Origin: Xenococcaceae cyanobacterium
GTDB lineage: Bacteria > Cyanobacteriota > Cyanobacteriia > Cyanobacteriales > JBFRWF01
Direction of reading: 5' to 3'
Assembly: GCA_051439465.1 (NCBI GenBank)
Contig: JBFRWF010000101.1
Span: 12,448-76,447 of the forward strand
Length of the DNA stretch: 64,000 nucleotides
Position numbers and translations under genes: made by a program. The first letter of the stretch is position 1. Each line of letters begins with the position of its first letter. A model generated the notes under the pieces. The model was not told where the DNA came from and made no database searches. It worked only from the letters and a program-made list of their open reading frames with translations. Below, piece after piece: positions 4,537 to 50,800 of this stretch.

Positions 4537-4596
4537 GTAAGAGTTTGAGCCACAGATAAACACATCCGAAGATATTATTCTCCTTACCTTTAAGCT

Positions 4597-8492: not shown

Positions 8493-8499
8493 AATGTTT

Positions 8500-9060
8500 T
8501 TAGGTGTTCTTTAAACTCGCGAGGTTGTCAGAAATAATGTCACCATCTTTGAGAAAGTTAGCTAGTTGATAGCCAACATCACTGTCAAGATCGCTGCTGG
8601 TAGATTGTAGAATGGAGTACGTTCCCTCAATGAGAACTTTTGAGTAGCGGGCTTGGCAATCGACAAAACGGATCGCATAAGCCATTCTTGAAGGCAATAC
8701 TCCGTCTTTCAAAGTACAACTTTTGTGCCAAACAAATTTATCTAGCACAAGAGCATCACCTACTTCAAAGTCATCTTCTACTTTATTATTATCCAAAATA
8801 AAAGTTATCAATGGAGAAGCATACTGAAAATTCCAATTCTTAAAGTCTTCAGTCTGCGAAAAATCAGCAATATTCTCTTGTTGCACTAACTGGTAAAGCA
8901 GGTCAAAATACTCGCGGGCAGAATGAATTTGGCGAGATACATAAGCCAAGCCTCCATGTTGCTCTTTCGTATTAATCGGATCGAGCGGTATCCACATCGT
9001 GTAGGCTAAATCTTCTGGCATGACATAACAAAGCGAAAGAAGATCGTGATGCCAACTTAT
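8500..9060 (-). pseudogene. 5'-truncated Fe(II)/2OG dioxygenase (PhyH-like)
   Basis: The frame upstream of the ATG at 9021 reads SWHHDLLSLCYVMPEDLAYTMWIPLDP; VWHKS and RMAYAIRF follow. An in-frame stop at 9127-9129 leaves no room for a normal N-terminal half. Confidence 0.6.
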
Positions 9061-9118
9061 TAAGGAGTAGGGGGGAGAGTCTGAATTATTACAAATCTCT
9101 AATCGCCATCGAGCATTA

Positions 9119-10432: not shown

Positions 10433-10479
10433 AAATTCCTTTGAGAATTTCAATTTTCACGAATAGACCGCTTTATTGG

Positions 10480-11553
10480 TTAAGGGTTGTTTTCAGGTGT
10501 AATTACGACTTTACCAAAAAAGCTTTTGCTTTGAAAAAACTTCTGAGCCTCTTGGATTTGACTCAGGGGGAAAACTTTAGCGACTGGAGGATTCAATAGA
10601 CCTCGTTCGATATATCCGAGCAAGTTCTGAAACACTTCTGGTTCATAACGGCTTGCTCCTTTCATCTCCACGTCCTTGTAAATCAGATCTCGCAAGTCCA
10701 GTTCAACCATTGGCCCTGCGATCGCCCCGGAAGTAACATATCTTCCTCCTACAACCAGACTTTTGAAGATAATATTAAAATACTTTCCTCCCACCACATC
10801 CAAGCTAACTGTTATTCGATGATTCTCTAAATTAGAAGCTAGTTGCTCATCTCGGCGATAAACGTAATCAGCCCCCAACTCCCTAGCCAAATACTCTTTG
10901 TTGGCTCCCACAATAGCAATAACCGTTGCCCCTCGAATTTTGCCTAACTGGATTGCCGCGCTGCCTACACCACCAGAAGCTCCCATAATTAATACTATAT
11001 CTTCGGCTGATACTCTTCCCTTTGTCAACAGATTTTCCGCTGTGGAATAAGCACAGGGTATCGTTGCTAACTCAACATCAGACAGGGATGAATTAATGGT
11101 GTAAACATTTGTAGCAGGGATTACCACATATTCAGCAAAACCTCCATCAAGTTCACTGCCAACATACTGATATTCTGCATATAATTTACCAGTACGAACC
11201 CAAGGATCCACAATCACCCGTTTATTGAGGATTTCCTGCTTAACATCCTCACCAATTTCGACCGCTTCCCCCACTAGATCGGCTCCCTGAATCCGAGGAA
11301 ATTTAATACCCATCTGATTCCAGGTTGCTTTTCTTCCCTCGTTGAGCTTAGTATCTTGCAGGATTTCTTGAAACCCTTCATCTGCTGCATACCACCCAGT
11401 CCGGGTATTCAAATCTGTATTGTTGATAGAACATGCTCCTACTTTGATTAATACTTCTCCCTTCTGGGGGGTTGGTTTAGGGACTTGGGTGTAGACTAAT
11501 TTTTCCAGCCCACCATATCCAGTGAGAACAACCGCATTCATTAATTGTGTCAT
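10480..11553 (-). CDS. MDR-family alcohol dehydrogenase / quinone oxidoreductase
   Basis: FPRIQGAD, DGGFAEYV, GASGGVGSAAIQL, FGKVVI. Confidence 0.9.
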   Translation of the reverse strand: MTQLMNAVVLTGYGGLEKLVYTQVPKPTPQKGEVLIKVGACSINNTDLNTRTGWYAADEGFQEILQDTKLNEGRKATWNQMGIKFPRIQGADLVGEAVEIGEDVKQEILNKRVIVDPWVRTGKLYAEYQYVGSELDGGFAEYVVIPATNVYTINSSLSDVELATIPCAYSTAENLLTKGRVSAEDIVLIMGASGGVGSAAIQLGKIRGATVIAIVGANKEYLARELGADYVYRRDEQLASNLENHRITVSLDVVGGKYFNIIFKSLVVGGRYVTSGAIAGPMVELDLRDLIYKDVEMKGASRYEPEVFQNLLGYIERGLLNPPVAKVFPLSQIQEAQKFFQSKSFFGKVVITPENNP

Positions 11554-11659
11554 CGTTTTTGGTTCCCTTGATAATTATGACTAAGCTGAAAAGGATATAG
11601 TTTGCGCGCACAAACTATATCCTGGGCTTCAAAACACACAAATTAAATGATTATCAGCT

Positions 11660-11790
11660 TCCCTTTCGACCATGACCCTTTGCTACAGTAGCTTGGGGTC
11701 AACACCGGAACCCACCTCAACCACTTTGCCAACAATATCGGCTCCTTGGATCCGAGGAAATTGGATCGAGGTTTGTCCCCAAGCGGTTGA
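11660..11790 (-). pseudogene. Fragment of a second MDR oxidoreductase
   Basis: AWGQTSIQFPRIQGADIVGKVVEVGSGVDPKLL*QRVMV aligns with TWNQMGIKFPRIQGADLVGEAVEIGEDVKQEILNKRVIV of 10480-11553. Confidence 0.8.
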
Positions 11791-11848
11791 GGTGTGAATG
11801 GTTGTTGAAGCGGTATCTTGGAGAACCGCTTCAAACTTATATATGACT

Positions 11849-28727: not shown

Positions 28728-31700
28728 ATGGTTCATATCAAGCGCGTGGAACTCTCGCACTTCAAATCCTTCGGCGGCACTACTCAAATCCCCTTGCTGC
28801 CAGGATTTACCGTAGTTTCTGGGCCAAATGGCTCAGGTAAATCGAATATACTGGATGCCCTGCTATTTTGCCTTGGTCTTTCCACTTCCAAAGGAATGCG
28901 AGCAGAACGCCTCCCAGATTTAGTTAACCACAAACAAAGCAATAATCGCCGTTCCGCTGAAACCAGCGTCTCTGTCACCTTGGATTTGTCTGATTGGGGT
29001 GATTTGGATATCAAGCAAAGGGAAGAAGGGGACAAGGAAGAAATTTCCCAATCCCCAACCCCCAATCCCCAATCCCTAGAATGGACTGTAACCAGGCGTT
29101 TGCGAGTAACTAAGGGGGGAAACTACGCCTCAACTTATTACATGAATGGCCAACCCTGCACCGCCACTGAACTCCACGAACAACTTAACCGCCTGCGGAT
29201 TTATCCCGAAGGCTACAATGTGGTACTCCAAGGAGATGTCACCCGCATTATTACTATGAACTCCCGGGAACGCCGGGAGATTATTGATGAACTGGCGGGA
29301 GTAGCGGAGTTTGACCGCAAAATTAACCAAACGAAGAAAACCCTAGAAGCAGTTAAGGAAAGGGAAGATCGTTGCCGAATTATTGAACAAGAGTTAATTA
29401 AAACTCGCGATCGCCTAGCTGCCGATCGGATCAAAGCGGAAAAATACCAAAAACTGAAAGCCAAAATCCAAGAGAAACAGCAGTGGGAAGTAGTATTAAT
29501 CTGGCGATCGCTCCAACAACAGGAACAGCAACAGAAAGCGCAAATCGCCGCCGGGGAGACAGAAGAAGCCCACTTAAAGGAACAACTCAATACCCTAGCA
29601 ACCCAAATCAGTCAAGCTACCACCTCCCTTGACCAACTCAATAGCCGTGTGAAAGCCTTAGGGGAAGAGGAGCAACTCTCTGTTGCCTCCAAGCTAGCAA
29701 CCCAAAAAGCCAAGCACCATCAACTACAACAGCGTCAACAGGAACTAGAAACTATTGCCACACAGAATAAAGCTTCAATTGAACGCACTGGACAAGAAAT
29801 TGAGCAATATCAGCAAACCTCAGCACAACTAACCCAAGAGAAATCCAGGCTAGAAACCGAAAAAATTACCTCCCTCTCTAGCCAGCGCAACCAAGCCAGA
29901 GAAACCCTCGCGCAGAGTCGGGAAAAAGCCAACGCGATCGCTGCCGCAAGTGAGGCTTGGGTACAAGAGCAAACCGCCTTCAGCCGGGAAATTGCCAGCT
30001 TGCAAAAAACCCTGAATCCCCAACGCACCGAACAAGCACAGTTAACCGAGCGCCACAGCCAGCTACAAAAGAAAATAGAAGAACAAACCCAGCTAATAAA
30101 AGCCACAGAACAGGAAATTGCTACCAAACGAGCAGATGTTGCTTCTTTATCCACCCAAGTTACTACCTCAGACCAACAGGTTCAATCTGTAGCGCAACAA
30201 TTAGCCGCTGCCGAACAAGCACGCAGCATCCAGCAAGACACCCAAACCCGCTTACTCAAAGAACAACGGGAAAAACAACGCCAACTCGATAAATTAGAAG
30301 CTACCAATCAAGCCCAGCAAGAAGCCCAAGGGACTTATGCTACCAAAGTTATTTTACAAGCGAATTTACCGGGGGTTTGTGGCTTAGTTGCCCAACTCGG
30401 ACAAGTGGATCCCCGCTATCAACTGGCACTAGAAACGTCTGCGGGTGGGCGATTGGGGTATATAGTGGTTGAAGATGATGGGGTAGCTGCGGCTGGTATA
30501 GAACTACTGAAACAAAAACGGGCGGGGCGTGCAACATTTTTACCCCTGAATAAAATACAGCTCCCACGCTTGAGCGAAACTGTAGCACTACGGTATGCGA
30601 GAGGTTTTATTGATTTAGCGGTTAATTTAATTAATTGTCAGCCTCGCTATCGCAACATTTTCGCCTATGTTTTCGGGAGTACGGTGGTGTTTGAAACCCT
30701 CAATGATGCTCGCCCTTATCTGGGAAAAAACCGCATTGTCACCTTGGAAGGGGAAATTCTGGAAAGTAGCGGGGCAATGACAGGGGGAAGTAAACCCAAT
30801 CGCTCCTCTCTCCATTTTGGCACCGCTACGGCAGGCGAATCAGGGGAACTAAAAGCCCTAAAAAGACGCTTGGATGAGATAGAGCAAATTTTACAACGCG
30901 GTGAAGAATTAGTATCACAGGGCTCAGAAAATGTCAAGCAGTTAACAGAAGAATTAACTGAAGCGCGACAGCAAAGGCGGGAGCAACAGTTACATTTAGA
31001 GCAGTTACAGCGAGAGATTGAGGGTTTAACTGGTCAAAAAGAGCAATTAAATTCTCAACTTGCCCAAAATCGCCAACAACTTGATACCGCCCAAAATCGG
31101 CTGCAAGTGTTGGCAGCCCAAATCCCTGTTCAAGAAGCCCAACTGCAACAGAAACAACAGCGTTTAACAGAATTAGAAGAGTCTCAGGCTCATAGCGAGT
31201 GGCAAAAAATTCAAACCTTAATTAAAGCCCAAGAAGCGCAGTTGCAGGAGCGAGAGGAGGCTTTGCGTCAAGCAGAGGAACAGTTAAAGGATTTGTCCAA
31301 TCAGTACCTACGCTTGGAAGAGAAAATCACCGAATCTCACCAACGCCTAGAAGAATATCAGCAACGACAGGTAGAAGTTAGCACTCAGCAGTCAGCTATC
31401 AGCACTCAGCTATGGGAGATTGGTGGGCAAATAGCAGAAACTGAGGCAGTTTTGCAGCAGTTATCGGAGAAACTGGAGGAGGCGAAAAAAGAACGCGATC
31501 GCGCTGAAGAATATCTGAGAAAGTTACAAAATCAACAGCAACAGAAATCCTGGCAACAGCAAAAACTCCAGGAAACTCAACAGGAACGACTCCAATCTCT
31601 CCAAAGCTTGCAACAACAGATACAAGCTCAACAAGGGGAACTCCCAGATCCTTTACCTGAGATTCCGATGCTGGTTGCTTCTGGTGAAGCGGATGGGGAA

Positions 31701-32375
31701 GGGGGGGCAATTGCCTTTGAGAGTTTCACCGCCCAATTAGAACAACTGCAAAAGGAACTGCGCAACGCCCAGAAGCGTCTCCAGGCAATGGAACCTGTAA
31801 ATATGCTAGCCTTAGAAGAATATGACCGTACTCAGGCACGTCTGGAGGAACTTTCCTCAAAACTGACAACCTTGGAAGCAGAACGAACTGAATTGCTACT
31901 AAGAATCGAAAACTTTACCACCCTGCGCTTCCGCGCCTTCAAAGAAGCCTTCGATGCTGTGAACGAAAACTTTCAAAGTATCTTTGCCAGCCTTTCAGAA
32001 GGAGATGGCTACCTACAACTAGATGACCCAGAAAATCCCTTTAATGGCGGTCTTAACCTCATTGCCCATCCCAAAGGCAAACCAGTGCAGCGTTTGAGTT
32101 CCATGTCAGGAGGGGAAAAATCCTTGACTGCTCTGAGTTTTATCTTTGCTCTACAAAGATATCGCCCCTCTCCCTTCTACGCCTTTGATGAAGTTGATAT
32201 GTTTTTAGATGGGGCAAATGTGGAGCGATTAGCTAGAATGATTAAAAAGCAAGCACAGCAAGCTCAATTTATTGTGGTCAGCTTACGCAGACCGATGATT
32301 GAGTCTTCTGAGCGCACCATTGGAGTCACACAAGCCAGGGGAGCTTATACTCAAGTGTTAGGAATCAAACTTTAG
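28728..32375 (+). CDS. smc: Chromosome segregation protein SMC
   Basis: FKSF, GPNGSGKSN, hinge GRATFLPLN, MSGGEKSL, FDEVD; long coiled coils. Confidence 0.97.
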   Translation: MVHIKRVELSHFKSFGGTTQIPLLPGFTVVSGPNGSGKSNILDALLFCLGLSTSKGMRAERLPDLVNHKQSNNRRSAETSVSVTLDLSDWGDLDIKQREEGDKEEISQSPTPNPQSLEWTVTRRLRVTKGGNYASTYYMNGQPCTATELHEQLNRLRIYPEGYNVVLQGDVTRIITMNSRERREIIDELAGVAEFDRKINQTKKTLEAVKEREDRCRIIEQELIKTRDRLAADRIKAEKYQKLKAKIQEKQQWEVVLIWRSLQQQEQQQKAQIAAGETEEAHLKEQLNTLATQISQATTSLDQLNSRVKALGEEEQLSVASKLATQKAKHHQLQQRQQELETIATQNKASIERTGQEIEQYQQTSAQLTQEKSRLETEKITSLSSQRNQARETLAQSREKANAIAAASEAWVQEQTAFSREIASLQKTLNPQRTEQAQLTERHSQLQKKIEEQTQLIKATEQEIATKRADVASLSTQVTTSDQQVQSVAQQLAAAEQARSIQQDTQTRLLKEQREKQRQLDKLEATNQAQQEAQGTYATKVILQANLPGVCGLVAQLGQVDPRYQLALETSAGGRLGYIVVEDDGVAAAGIELLKQKRAGRATFLPLNKIQLPRLSETVALRYARGFIDLAVNLINCQPRYRNIFAYVFGSTVVFETLNDARPYLGKNRIVTLEGEILESSGAMTGGSKPNRSSLHFGTATAGESGELKALKRRLDEIEQILQRGEELVSQGSENVKQLTEELTEARQQRREQQLHLEQLQREIEGLTGQKEQLNSQLAQNRQQLDTAQNRLQVLAAQIPVQEAQLQQKQQRLTELEESQAHSEWQKIQTLIKAQEAQLQEREEALRQAEEQLKDLSNQYLRLEEKITESHQRLEEYQQRQVEVSTQQSAISTQLWEIGGQIAETEAVLQQLSEKLEEAKKERDRAEEYLRKLQNQQQQKSWQQQKLQETQQERLQSLQSLQQQIQAQQGELPDPLPEIPMLVASGEADGEGGAIAFESFTAQLEQLQKELRNAQKRLQAMEPVNMLALEEYDRTQARLEELSSKLTTLEAERTELLLRIENFTTLRFRAFKEAFDAVNENFQSIFASLSEGDGYLQLDDPENPFNGGLNLIAHPKGKPVQRLSSMSGGEKSLTALSFIFALQRYRPSPFYAFDEVDMFLDGANVERLARMIKKQAQQAQFIVVSLRRPMIESSERTIGVTQARGAYTQVLGIKL

Positions 32376-35831: not shown

Positions 35832-36053
35832 ATGAAGTTAAAACTCAGAAAAATTGGAAATTCTATCGGAACTACTTTTCCCAAAGAAATCCTTGACAAG
35901 TTACAAGTCAGTGAAGGAGACACCCTCTATCTGACTGAAACCCCCGACGGGGTACAGCTAACCGCTTACGATCCTGAATTTGAACAGGTCATGGAAGCAG
36001 CAGAAATAGTAACCCGCCGTTACCGAAATGCCTTAAAAGAATTGGCCAAGTGA
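35832..36053 (+). CDS. AbrB/MazE-type antitoxin
   Basis: LKLRKIGNSIG..FPKEIL..L...EGD; overlaps the toxin start. Confidence 0.85.
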   Translation: MKLKLRKIGNSIGTTFPKEILDKLQVSEGDTLYLTETPDGVQLTAYDPEFEQVMEAAEIVTRRYRNALKELAK

Positions 36054-36424
36054 GCGAACTTATCTGGATTACACCCCGAATGGCTAGGGCAATTCAAAGC
36101 AAGCAGCTTGCTTTGTTTGGCGGATCTTCTGGTATTTTGGATGAAGGTAAGTTATCTTCGGCCTTGGCTAGAGCCAAACACCTTTACACCTACCAAAGAG
36201 ATGCTAGTCTTTATGAATTAGCCGCTACCATTGGTTGGGGATTAGTTAAAAACCACCCTTTTGTTGATGGCAACAAACGTACTGCTTTTGTGGTGATGGC
36301 AGTTTTCCTCAAGGTTAACGGAATTGATTTAATTGTGCCAGAGATGGAAGTGGTGACGGTTATGTTGGCTTTAGCTGCGGGGGATCTCAGTGAGCAACAG
36401 CTTAGTGATTGGCTTTCTATCTAG
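36050..36424 (+). CDS. doc: Doc-family (Fic fold) toxin
   Basis: HPFVDGNKRTA motif. Confidence 0.9.
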   Translation: MSELIWITPRMARAIQSKQLALFGGSSGILDEGKLSSALARAKHLYTYQRDASLYELAATIGWGLVKNHPFVDGNKRTAFVVMAVFLKVNGIDLIVPEMEVVTVMLALAAGDLSEQQLSDWLSI

Positions 36425-36794
36425 GGCTTGCTGAATAAAACTGAAACTTTTAGAGTCATCGAAAAGTTTCTCAGAATAGCGCGATCGCTCTTCGCACAGT
36501 TCAGTTTATTTCTGTCCACCTACTTATCGTCAAGTGCGGTTAACGTAGGGGCGCACCGACGTGCGCCCAATCATCTGGATGACTCCACCAGAGAAATATT
36601 AGGTTTTCGACACACATCCAAAAATCGAATAACCTAGAGCGGCAGTCCAGTAAAAGTTCTTGACAAAAAGAACATTCTGTGTATCTCTAAGAAGCTGGAG
36701 TTGAGACTAGAGAGATTTCGTCCGTCGGGTTCCCTTTTAGGAAGAAGATCATGTAACGACTTTCAAGATTTATTAATTGCGTCATCTATATCAG

Positions 36795-38201
36795 TTACTT
36801 TTTAGCTCCCAAACTTAAGCATACAGCCGGGTCTCCGATAATGACATAGTTCTGGGCATCATTTCGGCATATCCAAAGATCTGTAAAGTTTTTTGGGTCA
36901 GGATCTATTCCCAATTCTTCCATGTCTTCAACTAAGTTTAGTAAATCATTACTAAGGTCTGCATATTTTTGATTAAAGGCTGACAATGCAAAGCCTACCG
37001 GTTTTCCTCTCAGTAGCTTAGCCAGTGTCAATGCGAAGGATTCAATACGTCGCTCTCCCGTTGCCACGCTGGTAAAGGCATGAACCCATGCTGGATCTAC
37101 ATGGCCTATTACTGCTAGTGTTCCGCCTTTTGGATTCGCCAGCAAAGATTTTGGTAAGTAAGCAACGAAGTCCTCTTTTCCTTGCCAAGACTCCAATTTT
37201 TGTCGCGCTTGTGTTCCTGGCACATAGCGAATAAAGTCACTGTGAGAGCGTGTTCCAGCGCCATAGCAGGCAAAGGTAAAGAGAATGCCCCCTGGCAAAC
37301 AGAACCCTTCTGCAACATCATATCCACTGATGAAGCCTTGTCGCTTTTGAGAAGTCAGTGGTAGCTTGTAGTCTTGACAAATTATACTGCCCTGTAAAAA
37401 ACGCTGGTCGGGATCGGTGGCTGGGATTGCTGCACCGTGACTAGCGCTGAAGACAACAGCTGGTGTCTTTTCAGAGTTATGGGCATTTAAAGCAGCCAGT
37501 AAGTTAGCCTTAGTTGCATTATTTCCAATCAAAGCATCATAAGTCAGAGTAGTGGGTATATCTTTAACTTCAGGTAAATCCTTCAGTATAGGACCAACCA
37601 GGTGCTCACTAGTCTGACTGGTGGGATCATCATCCGAATGCCGAGGGGCGAAAAACACTACCCGTTTTCCTGGGGCTTGTATCTGATTCCTTTCATAGTT
37701 CACTACGGTGTGAGCATAGTAAACATAGTCCTTTGATTCGTCGAAATCAATGCGACCTACTGCCCTTAGAACTGCCAAGGAAAATTGCAAATCATAAGGT
37801 ATTTTAGTAGGGCTGCCAGCGATGAGGACATAATAAGGAAACTGCTTAAAATCGATATGATCGGCATGATATTTACGTTTCCAGTCATAAACTGACTCTC
37901 CGTTGTAGATAAAAACTTGACCCGCACGGCGTTCAATCAAGAGAGTAAGTCTTTCTTTCATCTCCTCAGCCTCGTCAGCATGAACCAACAGACCCCAGCC
38001 CACTTGTGCTGGATCGTCTAATTCGTTTTCTTCCCATCTCCTTTCCTGAGTGTAGATTCTCTTTTCTTGACGACTTTGCTCTGGGGCATAGTTATCTAAA
38101 ACCCATTTAGTCAGTTCTCTATATCGGACAGGCTCAATCAGAGGATCACCTGTAGTTGCATCCAGACCATTGAGGTAAAGTAACTGCTCGTTATTTTCCA
38201 T
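36795..38201 (-). CDS. Peptidase C25 (gingipain-like, clan CD) family protein
   Basis: PYYVLIAGSP, AVGRIDF, catalytic-type SASHG and FACYG, LAVIGH, NYVIIGDPA. Confidence 0.75.
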   Translation of the reverse strand: MENNEQLLYLNGLDATTGDPLIEPVRYRELTKWVLDNYAPEQSRQEKRIYTQERRWEENELDDPAQVGWGLLVHADEAEEMKERLTLLIERRAGQVFIYNGESVYDWKRKYHADHIDFKQFPYYVLIAGSPTKIPYDLQFSLAVLRAVGRIDFDESKDYVYYAHTVVNYERNQIQAPGKRVVFFAPRHSDDDPTSQTSEHLVGPILKDLPEVKDIPTTLTYDALIGNNATKANLLAALNAHNSEKTPAVVFSASHGAAIPATDPDQRFLQGSIICQDYKLPLTSQKRQGFISGYDVAEGFCLPGGILFTFACYGAGTRSHSDFIRYVPGTQARQKLESWQGKEDFVAYLPKSLLANPKGGTLAVIGHVDPAWVHAFTSVATGERRIESFALTLAKLLRGKPVGFALSAFNQKYADLSNDLLNLVEDMEELGIDPDPKNFTDLWICRNDAQNYVIIGDPAVCLSLGAKK

Positions 38202-38235
38202 TTTTATTGCTCCATTCACGTTGATGGTCTTCTGT

Positions 38236-41200
38236 TTAGAATTGATATCCAATGTCCGCGCCAGACACCATAAATCCAGCCCAGTAGTAGGGATGATCAA
38301 AAGGTTTGATGTCAGGATTGTGCCTCTGCTTGCGCTTCAAGTCATCACGCTGCCTCTGGAGTTCCCCAATCTGATTGCTGATAAGCTCTCGTTCCTTAGT
38401 CCCGAAGGAAAGTGTTTTACGTTGTATTTCAAGCCGATCCAGTATTGATTGAATGCAGTTAATCACAAGACTTGGGGTTGCCTCTTTGTATAACCAGTGT
38501 TGCGCAGCACATAATGCCTTACTAGGACTCAAGCCTTCTGTGATATAGTGGAGATAAAATCTCTCCATTAACAATGCTGAGGAGACATCGTCTACTGCCC
38601 ACAGGGTACTAACGACCGAGGATGCTCCAGCAAATAGGAATCCGCTGGTAATCCCAAGGTATTCGTCTACGAGATCTTCGGGGTCAGTGATATTCGTTTC
38701 GCAAGCTGAAAGAACCACCAGTCCTGTTTCTGACAGAGGTATTTCCTCGTCGAAGAGACTACTTAACGATATAAATTCGGGTCTTGCAAGTAGCAAACGT
38801 GACTCTAAGGGATCGTCCCATTTATATTCTCCATGACAGGAAAAGTGTAAGGCTGACTTCTTCTGAGATTTTTTTACGCTTTCTTGGCAAGCGCTTTCTC
38901 CATGAAACAATTCTACGTCATTTCTCTCAAGGTGGAAAGCATTTTTCCGACTAAGTTTTAACTTTTTTCCAGAGACTGAGAAATATGTCAATATACGCTC
39001 AATCTCGTATACGCTAAATGGCAAGTCACCAGTAGGATTTGAAAAGGCAGTAAGGCTTTTTGAAAGTTTGGGCCGAGTTGTCCGCTCTTGACAAATTTGA
39101 GCTAGGGTACTACTTGGGCTATAACTAATTTCGTAATCTTCTTGTAGATATCGACACTGACCACTTTTTTGGGAGCATCCCATTTTGGAAAAAGCATATC
39201 TCATTAAGCTATATAAGCCTGATTCTACAGTCCACCTAAAAAAGTAGATTAGCCAAAACGGGATGCTCCCACTTTTTTTGTACCAACAAGCATGTAAAGG
39301 TAATAGATGTAAAGCTCTATGAGGTACAAAGGTAACTCGCTTGATGTGCCATTCTTTCAATTGTTCATCTACTTGGCACAGCAATTCATCATAAACCTGA
39401 CCCAGTGTATGCTTGATGGCATCGTACCATGCTTCTGGCTTTGTCTTGCGATTTCGATAGGGTTCAACCCAACCTGTTGTCATTAAGCTGTGCAAGTGTT
39501 CAAGGGTAAAATCTGGCTGGAAGATGAGCTTCAAAGCTGTGGGATCATCCAATTTGGGAGGTAGATCTGGGGACTTATTCTCCTCTAATGAGCAACCGCG
39601 TGACAGGTAGATAATAGTACCTTGCTCTGTGACTTGGAACTCGACTAAAGCTGTATCAGGTTGTTTGGCAAGGGCTAAACGCATATTAACAAAGGAGGTT
39701 GTTTCGCCACGAGCCAGCCGAAAAACATAACTCCAGCGGCTGCGTGACAGTTTCTCCCAAGCGTCAGTGAGCGAGGCTTGGGCTTGATCGAACCGCTGTT
39801 GTGAAGATCGCTTGCTATCCTGTGCGCGGGTACGGAAGATTGGCGCTGGTGCATCCTTATCTTTTGGAGTCCGGGGGCGGGTGGTAACGTAGATTTTCCC
39901 TCGACCAGTAATCAGGTTTAAAACCTCCAACAGGGCTTCCAATTCCCGCAGAGTTTGTTCAGAGTTGATGTCTTTACCTTCTATCAGATCAACTATAGTT
40001 TGGCGACCTTTTTCAGTTTGGCGACCTTCTTCAGTTTGGCGACCTTCTTCAAACACCAACAAACCAAGCCCTTGCTCTTCCCTATCCATTTGACGAAGTT
40101 CATTGAGGCGACGGCAACCTGTTTCAAACCAATCACGTAAAGTAACAACTGAAGGCACATCAAAATTGCCCTTAGCTCTCTTGCGTAAGCTGGAGATAAC
40201 TTGATGAATCAATCCAAACGCCTCCCTTATGGAAGCTGCTAATGGATGTCCTGGAAGGCGACCTGCAATCTGCCACAATTGTTTGACTATCCATGGCACC
40301 CTCGATTCATGCCTCCCCCGATTCAGATATTCATCTAGAGCCTGCTCTTGTACGGGAACTGCAACAGGTAGTTTAGGTGCATTTTTAGCTGGTTCGATGC
40401 CCACCAATTCTTGTGTCCCTTCCGGTGCATCAGGGTCTCCTCCCTGAGCAATTACTCTCGCTCGACGAACTGCCGCCCAAAAATCTTCTTGGGCTCGCTC
40501 ATAGTGTCTAACTGGTGGACGTTGCTTCCGGACAATCAAGTCTCCTAGATATCTTGTCTTAGCCGCTTCTAGCGTTTCCCATGCCTGACTATCTGCCCCC
40601 AAGCGAAGATAACCTAGAGCCAAACCATCATAGATTTTAGCTTTATCAGCAAAAAAGTGGCGCAATCCTTTTTCTTCGATGGGCTGCATAAACCAACTGC
40701 GTGAAATCAGGGAAACAGCTTGTCTATACATCTCGAAAGCTAATGTGTCGTTGTTGCTATCGACCAGTCGCTGACCTAACTTGCTCAGTCCCTGCCAGGC
40801 TATAGAGGTGTTTCCCAGGCTACGAGTCAGAGCCAGAATCTGGAGGGTAATTTTTCTCAGTTTATCTTCCGGTCCCAGTTGAATAAAAGTTCGGACAACT
40901 CTATCGCTGAATTCAAAGCAAAATCGAGCTACCTTTAAAATCTCTGTATCGTTTTTTTCATTGTTTATATTAAATGTTTCAAGCTTGTTTTGGAAATATT
41001 TTAAGATTTCTTCGTAAAACAATCCCTCTTCGATTGCTAATCGTGCTGATAACGCTAGCCTACGCGCAACGTCGTGAGATGATTCGCCTGGACTAATAGG
41101 TTTTGTAGAGAACTCTCCCAGTCCTTCACCACTTCTACGCCATGTTTCGTATTCTTCAATAAGCCAAGGCTTTGTCTGGCGAATAATGAGGAGATATCTT

Positions 41201-41769
41201 TGGAAGGTATCAAGGAGGTTGGAGCCAATCTCTCGAATAATAAACCGGAACTCATCGTCGGGTTGTCGGGAAGATATCTCCCTACTCCTTGTTCTAAGAA
41301 AGGACTCTAGCTCCGAATCTTCTGCCCAAGTCACAAATTCCTGAAGTAAGGGATGTAGCATATATTCATACCCTTCTTGCCAGAAATTATTGTAATACAA
41401 GCAGCCTCCGCAAGATGCAAAATGTGCCATCTGCCTCTCGATGTTAGGCTCACCGATCATCCGACAGTTCTGGAATATGACCATGAGACTGACCAAGTTG
41501 GAGGGAGCTAGAAAGGGAGCATCCCATTTTTGTAATATCATTCCCAAAAGTAACGATAGTGCAAGAGTTTCAGATCCCTTTAAAATGGCTAACCTGCACA
41601 AATGGGATGCTCCCGCTAGAAATCCCTGCCTGACTCCCGCTGTCTTGATGAACTCCAGTGCCAAAGCCTCTAAACGAGAGTAATCCTCGTCCTGCCGAAA
41701 AAAACTTATATTGTTCTCATAAAGCCAGGTAAGGAATGGAATTAGTTGGTAACTGGGCAGAGGGATCAT
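38236..41769 (-). CDS. TPR-like + CHAT (caspase-like) domain protein
   Basis: TFVPHRALHLLPLHA, LHFSCHG, VVLSACET, GASSVVSTLWAVDD, HPYYWAGF; internal 18-bp repeat x3 (EEGRQT). Confidence 0.9.
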   Translation of the reverse strand: MIPLPSYQLIPFLTWLYENNISFFRQDEDYSRLEALALEFIKTAGVRQGFLAGASHLCRLAILKGSETLALSLLLGMILQKWDAPFLAPSNLVSLMVIFQNCRMIGEPNIERQMAHFASCGGCLYYNNFWQEGYEYMLHPLLQEFVTWAEDSELESFLRTRSREISSRQPDDEFRFIIREIGSNLLDTFQRYLLIIRQTKPWLIEEYETWRRSGEGLGEFSTKPISPGESSHDVARRLALSARLAIEEGLFYEEILKYFQNKLETFNINNEKNDTEILKVARFCFEFSDRVVRTFIQLGPEDKLRKITLQILALTRSLGNTSIAWQGLSKLGQRLVDSNNDTLAFEMYRQAVSLISRSWFMQPIEEKGLRHFFADKAKIYDGLALGYLRLGADSQAWETLEAAKTRYLGDLIVRKQRPPVRHYERAQEDFWAAVRRARVIAQGGDPDAPEGTQELVGIEPAKNAPKLPVAVPVQEQALDEYLNRGRHESRVPWIVKQLWQIAGRLPGHPLAASIREAFGLIHQVISSLRKRAKGNFDVPSVVTLRDWFETGCRRLNELRQMDREEQGLGLLVFEEGRQTEEGRQTEKGRQTIVDLIEGKDINSEQTLRELEALLEVLNLITGRGKIYVTTRPRTPKDKDAPAPIFRTRAQDSKRSSQQRFDQAQASLTDAWEKLSRSRWSYVFRLARGETTSFVNMRLALAKQPDTALVEFQVTEQGTIIYLSRGCSLEENKSPDLPPKLDDPTALKLIFQPDFTLEHLHSLMTTGWVEPYRNRKTKPEAWYDAIKHTLGQVYDELLCQVDEQLKEWHIKRVTFVPHRALHLLPLHACWYKKSGSIPFWLIYFFRWTVESGLYSLMRYAFSKMGCSQKSGQCRYLQEDYEISYSPSSTLAQICQERTTRPKLSKSLTAFSNPTGDLPFSVYEIERILTYFSVSGKKLKLSRKNAFHLERNDVELFHGESACQESVKKSQKKSALHFSCHGEYKWDDPLESRLLLARPEFISLSSLFDEEIPLSETGLVVLSACETNITDPEDLVDEYLGITSGFLFAGASSVVSTLWAVDDVSSALLMERFYLHYITEGLSPSKALCAAQHWLYKEATPSLVINCIQSILDRLEIQRKTLSFGTKERELISNQIGELQRQRDDLKRKQRHNPDIKPFDHPYYWAGFMVSGADIGYQF

Positions 41770-42071
41770 ATGGCTTTCACCTACTAAAATTCAGTGCAAA
41801 TTATGGCTGTTGTTAGCTGTAGCGTGCCAATGAGTGCGGGCAGATTTCTCTCAGTCCAGCAGACTTAGATATTTTTTGCCCATTGTCATTATATCTCTGA
41901 ATTGAAGCCCCGAAATAAAAAAATAGTAAAAAAAATTAAGATAACTCGCCAGAGGTATCGAGGGTTGGATGGCTTTTCAGTACTCTTATCATCTCTTCTC
42001 ATCTGCTGAAATGAACAAAATTTGTAGTAGTTGTTCAGTTCTCTAGAGTCTCTCTACTGACTAACTGGATG

Positions 42072-42638
42072 TCAATCCCAAAGCCCCTCAAACCGATTGG
42101 CACTCAGCCGAGTGTACCTGACGGTGTTCTGAATATTGGTGTGTCCCAAGTAGTCTTGAATTAGCCGAGTATCATATCCCTTGTTGGCAAGGTAATAGCC
42201 GCAGCTATGCCGAAGCAGATGAGACCTGACTTCAAACTCAAAGTCAGCAGCTCTTCCAGCTTGTAGGATAATGTGAGCCACAGAACGGGGTGAAAGAGGA
42301 GTACCTCGCTCACTTCGGAACACAAAGGGAAAGTCGGAATCTTTGAGCCGACGAAGTGCTCTGATTTCATCACCTTGGAGTGGATAACGCCCCGAACGAG
42401 AACCCTTCTGACCGCAGATATAAATGGTCCCACCTTAGAGGTCGATATCCGACCATCGGAGATTGGCAGCTTCTGAGCGGCGCAGGCCATGACGGTACAT
42501 GATGAGAATCAAAGTCGAGTCCCTGCCTGGATTCCGACTTGACTTCTTAGCTGTCGTAATGAGCCTCTTAATTTCACTTGCGGTGAGGTGGTCTCTTTCA
42601 ACATTGCCACTTTTAGTATTTGGCGACGATAGTTTCAC
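42072..42638 (-). pseudogene. FimB/FimE-like tyrosine recombinase with one in-frame TAA
   Basis: RHGLR ... DIDL*GGTIYI ... HLLRHSCG, LGH, VRYT; both halves are in the same frame, with the stop at 42435-42437. Confidence 0.85.
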
Positions 42639-42843
42639 GTTGGTAAATTACGGATTTAACTAGGTTTGTCGCCTAATACATTGCCGAAATTGGTCAGACA
42701 TGGCAAAGTTTAGAGGGGCGTATATACATTAATTGTTACAAAACTTTACAAGGAAATTGATTAACAACTTCTATCCCTTTCATCGATAAAGTTTGAACTT
42801 ATTAAAGTTGATCCTCGCCTATTGCTGGAATTCACCTCATTAT

Positions 42844-42869
42844 AAAAGGGGTAGTTAACTCAGATTCAG
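42844..42869. mobile_element. Solo right end of the CCAAATCCGGG MITE family
   Basis: AAAAGGGGTAGTTAACTCAGATTCAG-TA. Confidence 0.6.
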
Positions 42870-42871
42870 TA

Positions 42872-42924
42872 TAATCCACAATTGAGACTCATCGAGATTG
42901 AAGGAGGAACTTATGGCTTACTGA
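42872..42924 (+). repeat. Orphan copy of the precursor-gene spacer/RBS/start module
   Basis: TAATCCACAATTGAGACTCA is identical to 56045-56064; TCATCGAGATTGAAGGAGGAACTTATGGCT matches 55880-55909 at 28/30; the frame ends after MAY*. Confidence 0.8.
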
Positions 42925-42986
42925 GGTTCTGGAAAGTCGGCGATCGCTCACTTAATCGCGGCTAAGGCTTTGACCCAATTCCGCAT

Positions 42987-44900
42987 TCAGTCCTCCTCCA
43001 CTGCTCCCAACTCTTTCAATGTCGCTTTCTGCGCCTCTGTTAAACCTGTAACTCCTGTAATCTTCATCCCCTCATAGGGACGCTCAGCTCTGAGGGTCTT
43101 CAGATACTCGCCAGTCCTGACGTCCCAGAGTCTGATCGTTTTATCTGCACTACTACTGGCGAGGATTTGCCCAACTCCTTCGGAGAAGGCTTCGCCTACG
43201 GGACTCCAGGTCACCGTTCGCACCCAATTACTGTGCCCTTGCAATGTTCTGAGGTACTGTCCCCTCCTAGGGTTCCACAACCTGACCATTCGATCAATAC
43301 CGCCACTGGCAAGGATTTGCCCATCGGGACTCCAGGTTACGGACCAGACGGCATCTCCTTTCCCTTCCAGAGTTCTAAGACATTGTCCCGTTAAGGGGTT
43401 CCACAGTTTGATGGTTTGATCGGTGCTGCCACTGGCAAGGGTTCGTCCATCAGGACTCCAGGCTACAGCTCGAATCCAATTGCTATGTCCTTGCAAAGTT
43501 CTAAGACACTGTCCTGTTCTGGGGTCCCACAGTCTGACCATTTGATCGACACTGCCACTGGCAAGGGTTTGCTCAACTCCTTCGGAGAAGGCTTCGCCTA
43601 CGGGACTCCAGGCTACAGACCACACCCAACTGGTATATCCCTCCTGAAGGATTGACAATGGCTGACCATCCGCCACTCGCCACAGGCGAATCTCACCATT
43701 ACTATTTCCTGTAGCTAGGATCTGGCCATCAGGGCTGAAGGCAACAGATAAGATACTAGTGAAAGTTTGAGTAAAAACGGATTTGGCTAAATCAGCATAG
43801 GCAAAATTGACTTGATGCAAATTCACTTTCTGGAGATAGGCATGCCAAACTCTCAAATAAGAAAAATCATAACTACTTAAATCAATTTTGAGGTGATGGG
43901 CGAGGTTAATCAGATTGCCACCAGCATAGCCTGAGGTGGGGAGTGGGGAAATGGGGGGATGGGAAGGGCTATGAGAGCGCAGTTGCATGAGGATAGAGTG
44001 GAGTTGCCCCTCAAGTACCTTTTTAGACCCAAAGGTTGTGCGCAGTTGCTCAGCAATTGGCTCTAAAATTAGCCGGATTTGACTTTCTCTGACATAGTCT
44101 TTAACTGTGGTTTTAATTAGGGCATGACTATTGAATAGGGATGAAGGGTGAGGGATAATTCCACCTTCCGATGTGAGCTCTGTATAAACCTGCTCAGTTA
44201 AGCGGTCGGTGACATATTCCATTACGACAGGTTGTTGGGTGTAACCGTCGGATTGTTTCTCAATCAGCGTAGGCGTAGCCTTCTCGATTAGCGATCGCCA
44301 CCGCAGAGATTCCAAAGACTCCAATAATTTTGATTTGGAGACAGCCGGGACAATATCTGCTGCTAATTCCGAGATTTTGGTCCACTCCCGATTAATCGCC
44401 AACCAATACATAATCGTCTGTTCTACAGGAGAGAGACGATTGAACTGTTGGTCGAGAAGTCTTTGAATACCGTTGAAAATAGCAGTATCTTGCTCTAGAA
44501 ATTCTCCAATCTCACCGTCGAATAAGTCTTGAATTGAGGTGGCAACAATCTTTAGTGGTAGGGGACTATAACTATAGCGATCGCATAATTCTTGTTGCTG
44601 TTCCTCGGAACCGAGCAGTCCACTGGCTTGAATCAGGGCTAATGAGGTATCCAAAGAACCACTCAGTTGCAACGAACGTACCGATAACTCGATTCCCTCA
44701 AAGGTGGCAAGTTCGGCTGGTTTCTCCCGTGAAGTAAGGAGTAGACAACTCTGGTGGGCAGTTTCTCCCACTAACCGGAGCAGTTCTCCATATCCCTCAT
44801 AACCTGGGCGATATTTTCCCACGCACTCCCCCGGCTGTAGGATTGTCTCCAGATTGTCCAAAATCACCAGACAGCGGGAGTCTCGCAAGCACTGAAGCAA
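42987..44900 (-). pseudogene. NB-ARC + WD40 protein lacking its N-terminus and Walker A
   Basis: Starts at CLVILDNLE (Walker B), LLLTSRE, GGNLINL, then WD40 repeats and the typical [10 protein letters not shown] end. Confidence 0.75.
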
Positions 44901-46649: not shown

Positions 46650-47089
46650 AGATTGTCTCCGTTCATCAGAATGTATGTAGAGATTGAGCTGTCGGAGAGA
46701 ACCTTGTCAAGACCAAACGGGAAAAACCTGTCAATACTAAAAACAAACTCTGCTACCGATACTTATTCTCGACTTCCATCCTAACACCTGTACCGGGGGA
46801 GTTGCCGGACGTGCTGACTTTTGCCTGGATGCCTTTGAGCGCAGCGAGTGGCGATCGCGCCTTTCCGTGAAATCTAACATTGAAGTCAATTGCTTTATCT
46901 ACATCATGAAGAGGTTGGTAGCGATCGCCTTTTGGATAGGTTGGTAGCGATCTCCCTTTGGGGGGGAGTGAACTATTGCATTGCCTCCCGTCTCAAAAGC
47001 GCAAGTTGTGACCGTGCGAAGTATAGTATCAACTAATACTACAAACTGAAAATCATTGAACTTGAGAAGACAAGACAAAATTGTGATCC

Positions 47090-47743
47090 ATGAAAGATAA
47101 CAAAATTCAACAACGCTTCTCGAATATTTATCACCAACACAAGTGGGCGGGAAGGTCGCGAAGTGGTTCAGGTTCAGACCTGGAAAATGTGTTTGTCTAC
47201 CTTGGTATCCTACAAAGTTTACTTAATGATTCAGAACGTTCAATCAACAGCGTTGTGGATCTTGGTTGTGGAGATTGGTCTTTTTCTAAAACGATAAACT
47301 GGGGAACGATTTCTTATACTGGCATAGATATTGTGCCTGAGTTGATCGACGACTTAAACACAGGCTATGGGAATCGAAAAATTAAGTTCATACATGCAAA
47401 CATTGTAGATGACAAACTTCCCAAAGCTGATTTAGCAATATGCAAAGATGTATTGCAGCACCTTTCCAATAAATCTGTTGGAATTATCTTAAGGAAATTA
47501 ATGCAATACAAATATGCATTAATCACGAATGATATTTATAGAGGATTGAGAATGTCTAACTGGTTGAGCAACGTAAGAGTTCCACTTCAAAGGCCAAATA
47601 CGGAAATAAATGACGGAGGCTCTAGACCTCTGAATCTAACAAAAGAACCGTTTAATTTTCCCGCAAAAGAACTTCTCTGCTACGAAGTTAAATACAGTTT
47701 TTTTCTCTTTACAAAACAAGTATTGCTTTTCGAGGTTTCATGA
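47090..47743 (+). CDS. Class I SAM-dependent methyltransferase
   Basis: SGSGS, VVDLGCGD, YTGIDIV, KDVLQHL. Confidence 0.8.
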   Translation: MKDNKIQQRFSNIYHQHKWAGRSRSGSGSDLENVFVYLGILQSLLNDSERSINSVVDLGCGDWSFSKTINWGTISYTGIDIVPELIDDLNTGYGNRKIKFIHANIVDDKLPKADLAICKDVLQHLSNKSVGIILRKLMQYKYALITNDIYRGLRMSNWLSNVRVPLQRPNTEINDGGSRPLNLTKEPFNFPAKELLCYEVKYSFFLFTKQVLLFEVS

Positions 47744-47893
47744 ATGGCGTACACCGCCAGGTTAAACAAAAGCAGTTTGCGGCTACTGGTTGACAGAAAA
47801 AACTCCTTAAAGTACTATAGCTACGTACCTGTCCTGCCTGAAAATAAATGATACTGTTGGTTGATTTGTAATCGCTTTATCATTCAGTTGCTG

Positions 47894-50800
47894 ATGATCA
47901 CCATTGCTGGCTACCAGATCGCTGCCCAAATCTACGAAAGTGCCAATTCCTTAGTTTACCGAGGATACCGAGAACAGGACAATCGACCTGTGATTCTCAA
48001 GGTTCTCAGAGAAGACTATCCTACCCCCACGGAACTGACTCAATATAAACAGGAATATGAAATTACCCACAACCTGAACCTAGAGGGTGTTGTCAAGGCT
48101 TATAGCTTAGAAAAATATCAGAATACCCTGGTGATTATCTTCGAGGATTTTGGCGGCCAATCCTTGAATATATTGCTTAATCAGCAAAAGTTCACACTCC
48201 AAGAATTTCTCCACATTGGCATCAAAATTGCGGAGGGTTTAAGCTCCCTTCACGCCGCCAACATTATCCACAAGGATATTAACCCATCCAATATAGTTTT
48301 TAACCCAGCCGCCGACCAGCTCAAACTCATCGATTTTGGTATCTCCACCGTCTTGACGCGAGAAAGTCCCACCCTCAAAAATCCCAATGTTTTAGAAGGA
48401 ACTCTTGCCTACATTTCCCCAGAGCAAACCGGGAGGATTAATCGCTCGCTGGATTACCGCACTGATTTTTACTCCCTCGGTGTCACCTTTTATGAACTGC
48501 TGACTCATCAACTTCCCTTTGAAACCACCGACCCCTTGGAGTTGGTGCATTGTCATATTGCCAAACAGCCGGTTCCACCCCATCTAGTAAAAGGAGAACA
48601 AAACTGCCCCAAAGCAGTTTCAGATATTGTCATGAAACTGATGGCCAAAACCGCTGAAGAAAGGTATCAAAGTCCCTGGGGAATGAAAGCAGATTTAGAA
48701 AAATGTATGGCTCAGTTACAATCTCAGGGCAAAATATTAGAATTCTCCCTCGCTTCTCAAGATATTGCTGACAAATTTCAAATTCCGCAAAAACTTTATG
48801 GTAGAGAGGGAGAAGTTGCAACTTTGTTAGCTGCTTTTGAACGGGTAGCAGTAGGGGAAAAGGGAGAGAGGGGGAGAGGGGGAGAGGGGGAGAGGGGGAG
48901 ACGGGGAGAGGGGGAGACGGGGAGACAAGGGGACGAGGGGACAAGGGGACAAGGAGACTTAGGGGAGAAGAAAGAGAAATCTAGAATCCACAATCCATCT
49001 GCGCTTTACTCGGCGACGGAGTCTAAATCCAAAATCGAGATGATGTTGGTGTCGGGTTATGCGGGTATCGGTAAGTCAGCACTGGTTAAAGAAATTTATA
49101 AGCCCATCACCCAAAGTCGAGGTTATTTTATTTCCGGTAAATTTGACCAGTATCAGCGTGATATTCCCTATTATGCAGTAATTCAAGCTTTCACTGAATT
49201 AGTCAAGCAACTGTTAACGGAAACCGAAGCACAACTTAAAGGGTGGCGAAAGAAATTAGAAGCTGCTGTTGGTGCCAATGGTCAGCTGATTATTGATGTG
49301 ATTCCAGAAGTAGAACTAATTGTCGGTAAACAACCAGCAGTACCGGAAATCCCAGCAGCGGAATCTCAAAATCGCTTTAATCTAGTGTTTCAAAACTTCA
49401 TTAGGGTGTTTACTCAGCCAGAACATCCCCTAGTAATGTTTCTGGACGATTTACAGTGGGCGGATGCTGCTAGCTTGAAGCTAATGCAACTGCTGATGAC
49501 GGCACCCGATCTCGGCTATCTCTTTTTGATTGGAGCATATAGAGATAACGAAGTAAGTGGAGCTCATTCCTTAATGCTAACTATAGATGCAATTAGACAA
49601 GCTGGGACAATTGTCAATCAAATCTACCTGTCACCTTTGAACTGCTCTGTCGTTACTGAGTTAATTGCAGATACCCTCAAAGTGCGGTCAAAAGTTAAGC
49701 CTCTGGCAGAATTAGTGTTGACAAAAACCAATGGTAATCCTTTCTTTGTGAGAGAGTTTTTTAAATCGATCTATGCAGAAAAGTTGTTGCAGTTTGACCA
49801 CAAAAACCTCAGTTGGCAGTGGGATTTGGGGCTAATTAAAGCAAGGGAGATTACTAATAATGTAGTTGAACTGATGGCAGATAAAATTCAAAAGTTGCCA
49901 GATAACGCACAACAGATATTAAAGCTGGCAGCAATAATTGGCAATCAGTTTGAGCTTGAAACCTTGGCAATTGTTTCAAAAAAATCACCCAGAGAAGCTG
50001 TACTATCTCTGCACGAGGCAATGGCAGAAGGTCTAGTTTTACCCAAAGGCGATGCCTACAAGTCAATTGAGCTAGATGTGCCACAGCTAGCAGGAGGGTT
50101 AACAGTTGAATACCAGTTTGTACATGATCGGATTCAACAAGCAGCATATTCCCTTATTCCTGAAGTAGAAAGGCGAAGGGTGCAGCAACAAGTGGGACAA
50201 CTGATGTTGCACAATACTCCATCGTACCAGCTAGAAGAGAAAATCTTTGATATCGTCAACCAACTGAACTTTGGCTCTGAACTAATTAACTTTCAGTCAG
50301 AAAGGGATGAACTTGCTCAGCTAAATCTGATGGCAGGTAAGAAGGCAAGGGCATCTGCAGCCTATGAATCGGCTTTGAGATACTTGGAAATAGGTATCGA
50401 ACTATTAAGAGAAAATAGCTGGCAGACTCAGTATAATCTGACCTTAAAACTCTACGAGACAGCAGCAGAAGCAGCATATCTCAGTGGCGATTTTGAGCAG
50501 ATGGAGAGACTGGCACAGGTTGTACTGCAACAAGCTTCGACCCCACTAGACAAAGTCAAAGTCTATGAAGTCAAGATCCAAGCCTATATAGCACAGAATC
50601 AGCTTCTTTTAGCAATAAATACTGGCTTAGAATTGCTAAAGCTTTTGGGAGTAAATTTTCCTGCTGTGCCCAACAAACTGAATATTTTGCTGGAACTGGT
50701 CAAAACCAAGTTGGCTTTGGCCGGAAAAAAGATTGAACAATTAAAAAATTTGCCAATTATAGTCAACCCTTATAAAAAAGCAGCTATGTCTATCCTGTCA

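Follow-up and report, generated by a model that had tools for sequence, protein, structure and literature searches.

Two adjacent genes in a 64,000-nucleotide stretch of the genome of a Xenococcaceae cyanobacterium (the window; positions 12,448 to 76,447 of contig JBFRWF010000101.1), one for a CHAT cysteine protease and the other for a protease of gingipain, or C25-like, fold, very probably work together as a functionally coupled pair of proteases, a module of the type found in conflict systems. The two open reading frames (ORFs) are co-oriented on the minus strand, with the CHAT gene (gene 1) first and the C25-like gene (gene 2) second, and the 34-bp gap that a first-pass annotation of this DNA had reported between them is exact (Table 1). 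A scan of the region for promoter and terminator signals found no terminator-like site between the genes, and its matches in the region were at or below the number expected from shuffled sequence. A single operon is the simplest reading of the two genes. The mechanical call of gene 2 begins at a TTG codon (position 38300) that overlaps the CHAT gene; the ATG at 38201 gives a protein of the same extent as its homologues.

CHAT and C25-like genes occur together in bacteria and in an Asgard archaeon

The association of CHAT genes with C25-like genes is meaningful and not a product of chance. In a tree of 98 members of the C25-like family, the gene 2 protein belongs to a well-supported clade (99 in the Shimodaira-Hasegawa-like approximate likelihood-ratio test, SH-aLRT) that is almost wholly metagenome-derived and whose members are 40-66% identical to it. 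The neighbourhood search that the first-pass annotation had suggested shows that the pairing is conserved in this clade, with CHAT nearby in all eight members that have a readable context (directly adjacent in seven, one gene away in the other). The CHAT gene lies directly upstream of the C25-like gene in L001 (a metagenome-assembled genome, or MAG, of the Asgard archaeal Hodarchaeota), L002, L003-5, L006, L088 and L090, directly downstream in L089 and one gene away in L091/92, and the remaining flanks have nothing in common between loci. The host genome of the window contains 36 CHAT genes in 7.5 Mb and one C25-like gene, and the chance that a random gene in this genome has a CHAT neighbour is ~0.5% per side.

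The family to which gene 2 belongs is large, with more than 856 matches in a word-indexed search, at least 596 loci in species-representative genomes and 3,068 clusters at 50% identity, 1,354 of them at E<=1e-30. In 80 species-representative loci from its distant bulk (33-39% identity), a CHAT gene was found within 8 kb at 45 and an nSTAND1 NTPase gene at 41, and many of the other loci are truncated contigs. A recurrent order in Chloroflexota is a C39-like+SH3 protein, CHAT-SIR2, nSTAND1-WD40, the C25-like protein and an unassigned protein of 255 residues, and in Nostoc and Scytonema an unassigned protein of 460 residues, the C25-like protein and a CHAT-nSTAND1-WD40 protein. The two protease domains are also fused, in both orders, with CHAT preceding the C25-like domain in P0168 and following it in a 1123-residue protein of a Chloroflexaceae MAG (L007:4325-7696); the fusion that has the gene order of the window provides 'Rosetta-stone' evidence for a shared pathway. 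Other fusions carry a TIR domain C-terminal to the C25-like domain (three Acidobacteriota loci, L034:2797-5421, L067:8001-10646 and L069:4374-7187), two C25-like copies after nSTAND1 (P0151, P0165) or a C25-like domain after a lipase-like hydrolase (P0279).

The TIR, SIR2 and STAND partners place the C25-like family among immune or conflict systems. In addition, C25-like genes of relatives adjoin HepT/MNT, AbiEii, Fic, RHS and transposase genes, and this family context of STAND NTPases, TIR, SIR2, toxin-antitoxin genes and transposases points to a role in conflict, defence or cell death, as the first-pass annotation had proposed. Filamentous or multicellular lineages such as Nostoc, Chloroflexota and Planctomycetota are over-represented among the carriers of the family. 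At the level of the window's own order, a homologue of gene 2 was absent from all 40 genomes compared, so the gene is accessory and was probably acquired; its closest relatives are in other phyla and in an archaeon.

Two further families recur beside distant relatives of gene 2. One of ~255 residues lies downstream in Chloroflexota (L036:8653-9417 and 20 other loci) and one of ~460 residues lies upstream in Nostoc and Planctomycetota (L065:6432-7835 and 12 others), and neither matched a Pfam family or a PDB sequence; another family of neighbours, of ~368 residues, is a papain-like C1 peptidase. A gasdermin identity was considered for the 255-residue neighbour and found no sequence support, and the ORF list contains no gasdermin ORF of ~240-300 residues adjoining the pair in the window.

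Individual loci show other arrangements. In L006, a gene for a C14 (caspase/metacaspase) peptidase (2876-4831) overlaps the start of the CHAT gene, so that C14, CHAT and C25-like genes, all of clan CD, stand in a row. In L007, two more C25-like genes follow the fusion in tandem (7998-9956 and 10017-11843). The CHAT partner that follows the C25-like gene in L089 (3772-6834) has a C-terminal FGE-sulfatase (C-type-lectin-like) domain, a fold that other conflict systems employ as a variable sensor of ligands.

The predicted gingipain fold of the gene 2 protein

The C25/gingipain-like identity given to gene 2 by the first-pass annotation is weak by sequence and well supported by the predicted fold. 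The Pfam C25 profile (PF01364) matches only C-terminal residues 349-460 and falls below its cut-off (E=8.7e-4, 19.1 bits versus 23 bits), relatives at 33-39% identity score above that threshold (24-60 bits), and searches of PDB sequences with the protein and with a family profile returned spurious matches only (PPR repeats, AhpD). When an AlphaFold model built from a 28-sequence alignment (mean predicted local distance difference test score, pLDDT, 89.6; predicted template-modelling score, pTM, 0.92) was compared with the PDB by Foldseek, the sole significant fold match was gingipain K (Kgp; 6i9a_A, 4rbm), with E=6e-9, a probability of 1.00, a template-modelling (TM) score of 0.49-0.51 and 467 aligned columns, and the next were non-significant matches to periplasmic-binding folds. 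The first-pass annotation had named a caspase-hemoglobinase fold as the structural expectation for this protein, and the model shows the two-subdomain fold of gingipain type.

The His-Gly and Ala-Cys motifs of the protein each come right after a predicted core beta-strand, which is the arrangement of clan CD. Both catalytic dyads had been described as intact, and that of gene 2 (SHG/FAC) proves to be conserved in its family: in the alignment of 28 members, all have C312 and all but one have H255, and other invariant residues are C275-Q276, H367, N447-D448 and the GDPA at 456-459. One close relative, P0035, has Asn at the position of the catalytic His. The conservation of this dyad in 28 diverse members favours a working protease.

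The absence of a signal peptide, also noted in the first-pass annotation, is borne out by direct reading of the N-terminus, MENNEQLLYLNGLDATTGD, which has no hydrophobic stretch. The catalytic fold fills the 468 residues, with no pro-domain, no extra domain and no type IX secretion system (T9SS) C-terminal domain, so the gene 2 product is, on its sequence and model, a bare cytoplasmic enzyme of gingipain fold.

The CHAT protein and its helical-repeat region

The CHAT assignment of gene 1 is clear by sequence (Pfam PF12770 over residues 788-1170, E=1.9e-42, 146.1 bits where the cut-off is 24). Its dyad (CHG/SAC) is likewise intact: in an alignment to the solved structure of Csx29 (chain 7y9x_B), H979 falls on H615 and C1023 on C658, with FSCHGE and LSACET of gene 1 opposite LLCHGE and LGACES; we take H615 and C658 to be the catalytic residues of Csx29. 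In a Foldseek search with the AlphaFold2 model, Csx29/TPR-CHAT complexes came first (E=1e-14), followed by separase.

Residues 1 to ~700 are wholly helical in this model, whose confidence is high in the CHAT domain (pLDDT mostly 85-96), moderate over residues 250-700 and below 50 for most of residues 1-250. The label TPR-CHAT, which the first-pass annotation had used, is not demonstrated, because residues 1-770 match no TPR, HEAT or other repeat family even at E<=0.1 and the repeat is visible only as an all-alpha prediction; the protein is more accurately described as a helical-repeat-CHAT protein with a predicted Csx29/separase-like architecture. Within this ORF, three tandem 18-nt repeats (39997-40051) encode EEGRQT-EEGRQT-EKGRQT in a low-confidence loop at residues ~573-590.

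The closest CHAT relatives are four HEAT-repeat-CHAT proteins with 34-49% identity over ~930 residues. The similarity starts only at residue ~243-259, and the relatives have HEAT repeats before that point. The N-terminal 260 residues of the gene 1 protein gave no homologue at E<=0.01 and no Pfam match at E<=0.1, and they are unlike the HEAT region of the homologue P0123 when the two are compared directly. Thus, the first-pass description of the N-terminal ~270 residues as unrecognised stands, whereas a sensor role for them was overstated, in view of their low model confidence and of the 36 residues among them that are encoded by an inserted element.

That element is one of two copies, within the CHAT ORF, of a 100-nt miniature inverted-repeat element (MITE) with inverted ends GGGAGCATCCC/GGGATGCTCCC, and each copy is bordered by a perfect duplication of its 8-bp target. 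Since element plus duplication amount to 108 nt, each copy adds 36 codons, and both are free of stops in the frame of the gene. Copy B lies in the orphan N-terminus. Copy A lies within the CHAT domain, in a loop six residues past the conserved LPLHA strand, at a site where the closest homologue, P0123, reads LPLHACWRQVNGQRRYLLDDYEISY without interruption. By analogy with caspases, this loop would adjoin the substrate pocket, and the activity of the CHAT protease could therefore be altered.

Ten copies of the same MITE family were found in the genome, seven of them inside long ORFs of 450-1194 residues, including another CHAT gene; the other copies are on contigs C47, C168, C188, C327, C328, C395, C415 and C440. 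Such insertions seem to be tolerated, because at least five other long ORFs in the genome continue through a copy of this family. Three different proteins contain A-type copies that are read in one and the same orientation and frame, and the presence of MITEs in coding genes recalls the Rickettsia palindromic elements.

Relation to characterized systems

The one characterized precedent for a pair of this kind is in the type III-B CRISPR (clustered regularly interspaced short palindromic repeats) locus of Haliangium ochraceum, where SAVED-CHAT cleaves and activates PCaspase and this leads to abortive infection (bioRxiv 10.1101/2023.06.23.546230). Both pairs combine a CHAT protease that has a regulatory or sensor part with a second, stand-alone protease of caspase fold. 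However, the window pair lacks SAVED, a source of cyclic oligoadenylate, and CRISPR or CBASS (cyclic-oligonucleotide-based antiphage signalling system) genes; its second protease has a gingipain (C25) fold instead of the fold of a C14 caspase or metacaspase; and its locus is without genes for a PCi inhibitor, sigma factor or kinase.

Csx29, the TPR-CHAT protein of the type III-E Craspase, shares with the gene 1 protein an N-terminal helical repeat and a C-terminal CHAT domain with aligned His and Cys, and is its top Foldseek match. In contrast to Csx29, the gene 1 protein scores only 66.7 bits against the NCBIfam model NF041237 (cut-off 300 bits), has 1177 instead of about 700 residues and no TPR that is recognisable by sequence, and is not accompanied by Cas7-11/gRAMP or Csx30/31, as the ORFs scanned around the locus include no cas gene. 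The CHAT protease of the Borvo system (PADLOC BovA) is an anti-phage effector too, but its matches to gene 1 are weak and partial (E=1e-5, ~60-120 residues), and Borvo is a single gene without a second protease.

On the C25 side, the gingipains Kgp and RgpB and the related PorU (MEROPS family C25, clan CD) have the same two-subdomain alpha/beta catalytic fold as the gene 2 model, with His-Gly and Ala-Cys after consecutive strands and with the C-terminal GDPA at the end of the Pfam C25 profile. Gene 2 differs from them in being only ~10% identical and below the Pfam cut-off, in being cytoplasmic, without signal peptide, large pro-domain or Ig-like, haemagglutinin or T9SS C-terminal domains, and in having ~24 extra residues between His and Cys that carry an invariant QG..CQD motif. 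The hosts of its family are cyanobacteria, Chloroflexota, Acidobacteriota, Planctomycetota and archaea rather than Bacteroidota.

Comparative genomics has also described NTP-dependent conflict systems in which caspase-like or trypsin-like effectors are combined with STAND NTPases (Kaur et al. 2020, PMC7159879), and a later analysis named nSTAND1 (Kaur et al. 2021, PMC8195603). The C25-like relatives resemble these systems in clustering with nSTAND1-WD40, CHAT-SIR2, TIR and papain- or C39-like peptidases, in their enrichment in multicellular bacteria and in the same logic of sensor, switch and peptidase, but the operon in the window has no STAND or AAA+ NTPase. The words 'CHAT', 'gingipain' and 'C25' are absent from the 2020 paper (PMC7159879), a search for 'gingipain-like' together with CHAT returned T9SS papers only, and no description of a CHAT + C25/gingipain-like pair was found in the literature searched, which excluded most subscription journals. 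In all probability the pair represents a minimal, so far undescribed version of a cascade of caspase-fold proteases.

Proposed mechanism and alternatives

We infer a conflict function, a direction for the cascade, a zymogen activation and a broad cleavage of substrates. In this proposal, the pair would be a horizontally acquired two-gene conflict module that acts in defence against phages, in abortive infection or in the regulated death of the cell. The long alpha-helical repeat of the CHAT protein would bind a ligand or partner and hold the C-terminal CHAT protease in check, and the C25-like protein would be a stand-alone gingipain-fold protease with no sensor domain of its own. A trigger would release or assemble the CHAT protein, the CHAT protease would then switch on the C25-like protein by cleaving either that protein or a complex of which it is part, and the activated enzyme would cut cellular or invader proteins and bring about the arrest or death of the cell.

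Several observations argue for a direction from CHAT to the C25-like protein. For example, the variable, sensor-type parts found in the clade (TPR, HEAT-like helices, FGE-sulfatase) are all on CHAT proteins, and the C25-like protein of this clade is always a bare enzyme of ~465 residues. The CHAT protein of Nostoc includes a STAND-WD40 receptor, from which the C25-like protein is separate, and the sole characterized precedent, SAVED-CHAT to PCaspase, runs in the same direction. Even so, we advance the full reading, including this direction of activation, tentatively and at somewhat less than an even chance of being right.

It is less probable, though far from negligible, that the two proteins are coupled in another way: the C25-like enzyme would process or activate CHAT, or both would be obligate partners in a hetero-complex, with the C25-like protein as regulator, adaptor or safety catch and with CHAT (in relatives a fused TIR, SIR2 or lipase) as the effector. 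In favour of this reading, C25-like domains are fused to TIR, to a lipase-like hydrolase and, in L007, to the N-terminal side of CHAT, they stand C-terminal to nSTAND1, the usual place of sensor or adaptor parts, the Chloroflexota CHAT protein carries SIR2, a domain of effector type, and P0035 has Asn for the catalytic His. However, the invariant C312 and nearly invariant H255 across the 28 diverse members point to a working protease, the variable sensor-like regions of the clade are on the CHAT partner, and the precedent has CHAT acting on the second protease. The copy in this genome may also have been compromised by its MITE insertions, and the two 108-nt insertions in the CHAT ORF (one six residues past LPLHA), the N-terminal 260 residues that lack homologues and have low model confidence, and the frameshifted integrase next door could all be signs of a decaying, non-functional remnant in which CHAT was disabled by MITEs and by the loss of a HEAT-type N-terminus. 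Such decay, which is compatible with the other readings, is unlikely in light of ORFs that are uninterrupted over 3.5 and 1.4 kb and keep all invariant residues, of the read-through of this MITE family in at least five other long ORFs, and of the variable length and sequence that CHAT proteins show in the loop entered by copy A.

Clan-CD proteases such as HetF have a role in cyanobacterial development. With the enrichment of the C25-like family in filamentous or multicellular lineages and the 36 CHAT genes of this genome, this precedent could suggest that regulated proteolysis by the pair is part of the ordinary life of filamentous bacteria, for instance in development, in the response to stress or in the quality control of proteins. 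We consider this improbable, because the gene is absent from all 40 genomes of the same order and has its closest relatives in unrelated phyla and an archaeon, because no two loci share their flanks, in which toxin-antitoxin and mobile genes abound, and because TIR and STAND NTPase fusions are typical signatures of immune systems. A coincidental adjacency, for which the CHAT-rich genome itself might be invoked, is extremely improbable and effectively refuted by the eight of eight clade members with CHAT nearby and by the fusion of both domains elsewhere.

The proposed CHAT-to-C25-like cascade has to be weighed against a further set of observations that count against it. A position of the C25-like domain C-terminal to a STAND NTPase, or its fusion to TIR or lipase, fits an adaptor or regulator equally well, and no site at which CHAT would cleave the C25-like protein could be predicted. 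PADLOC returned nothing for the C25-like protein and a weak, partial BovA match for CHAT. The MITE insertions, including the one in the loop by the LPLHA strand, and the orphan N-terminus with its low model confidence mean that this CHAT copy may be impaired. The nearest CHAT homologues are not followed by a C25-like gene (TPR or unassigned proteins follow in L093, L094 and P0125), so the CHAT side is independent of a C25-like partner. In addition, a search for RNA evidence of co-transcription found the sequence only in the source DNA metagenome, from marine sediment.

To our knowledge, only one bacterial cascade in which a protease activates a protease has been shown experimentally so far, and that cascade requires signalling by CRISPR. 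If the CHAT + gingipain-fold pair works likewise, prokaryotes would make wide use of two-tier cascades of caspase type as a free-standing design for immunity or cell death. A broader extension of this proposal is possible but doubtful: the C25-like family (~3,000 clusters at 50% identity, in many bacterial phyla and Asgard archaea) could consist of cytoplasmic gingipain-fold executioners that are switched on by CHAT or STAND-CHAT initiators independently of CRISPR, and its Nostoc form, with a C25-like gene next to CHAT-nSTAND1-WD40, would mirror the logic of the animal apoptosome with Apaf-1, caspase-9 and caspase-3. We otherwise know the gingipain fold almost only from secreted virulence proteases, and in this pair it would have a second, intracellular life. 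Because the two-gene form in the window is the smallest version of the module, it is the most practical one to clone and test.

Genomic surroundings of the operon

The operon is flanked on one side by a Phd/Doc toxin-antitoxin pair and on the other by a tyrosine recombinase pseudogene (Table 1), in which positions 3-51 (42435-42638) and 97-171 (42072-42323) of the Phage_integrase profile are in different frames. Both had been recognized in the first-pass annotation, the second as a recombinase, and an insertion sequence (IS) remnant that it also listed was not found among the flanking ORFs tested. The broken recombinase may be a remnant of the element that carried the pair into this genome, and together with Phd/Doc it fits an arrival on an integrative element that is now dead. 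However, the borders of the putative insert showed neither att-like direct repeats nor a tRNA.

Table 1. Coordinates of the protease operon, its parts and its immediate neighbours in the window.
Feature	Position	Strand	Description
Gene 1	38236-41769	minus	1177 residues from ATG; helical-repeat + CHAT cysteine protease (ORF list, Pfam)
Orphan N-terminus of CHAT protein	41040-41769	minus	~245-260 residues; pLDDT <50
CHAT domain (Pfam)	38260-39408	minus	Residues 788-1170; structural extent of domain ~705-1170
Catalytic His979 of CHAT	38833-38835	minus	Codon; CHG motif
Catalytic Cys1023 of CHAT	38701-38703	minus	Codon; SAC motif
MITE copy A	39163-39278 with duplication; element 39171-39270		Perfect 8-bp target duplication ACTTTTTT; residues ~833-868
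MITE copy B	41507-41622 with duplication; element 41515-41614		Perfect 8-bp target duplication GCTAGAAA; residues ~48-84
Intergenic spacer	38202-38235	minus	Exactly 34 nt; Shine-Dalgarno-like GGAG 8 nt before gene 2 ATG
Gene 2	36795-38201	minus	468 residues from ATG at 38201; predicted cytoplasmic gingipain-fold (C25-like) cysteine protease
His255 of gene 2	37437-37439	minus	Codon; SHG (254-256), after predicted strand 249-252
Cys312 of gene 2	37266-37268	minus	Codon; FAC (310-312), after predicted strand 306-309
Phd-type antitoxin and Doc toxin	35832-36053 and 36050-36424	plus	Convergent with protease operon
Tyrosine recombinase pseudogene	42072-42638	minus	Frameshifted; directly upstream of CHAT gene

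The region from 36488 to 42940 (6.45 kb) is free of the HIP1 sequence GCGATCGC, which agrees with the gap between about 36.5 and 42.9 kb seen in the first-pass annotation. As a mark of foreign DNA this gap is real but not exceptional, because the mean HIP1 spacing in the window is 1.56 kb and a second gap of similar length (6.2 kb) lies at 46928-53138.

No SAVED, CARF or C14 domain and no cas or cyclase gene was found among the ORFs scanned from ~28.7 to 47.7 kb. The locus therefore appears to be independent of CRISPR and CBASS, in line with the CRISPR-independent function that had been suggested for it. A WD40 protein of 637 residues (42987-44900), whose N-terminal 330 residues have no family match, was considered as a third component because it is co-oriented with the pair, and was set aside because the broken integrase lies in between.

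An ATPase of 1215 residues (28728-32375) was also considered as a defence gene on account of PADLOC matches to mad3, AriA and LmuB, and was rejected as a canonical chromosomal SMC protein (SMC_N + hinge). As this is a housekeeping gene, the left flank is core genome and not a defence island. The same SMC gene provides an example of the cross-matches that generic ATPases produce in libraries of defence models.

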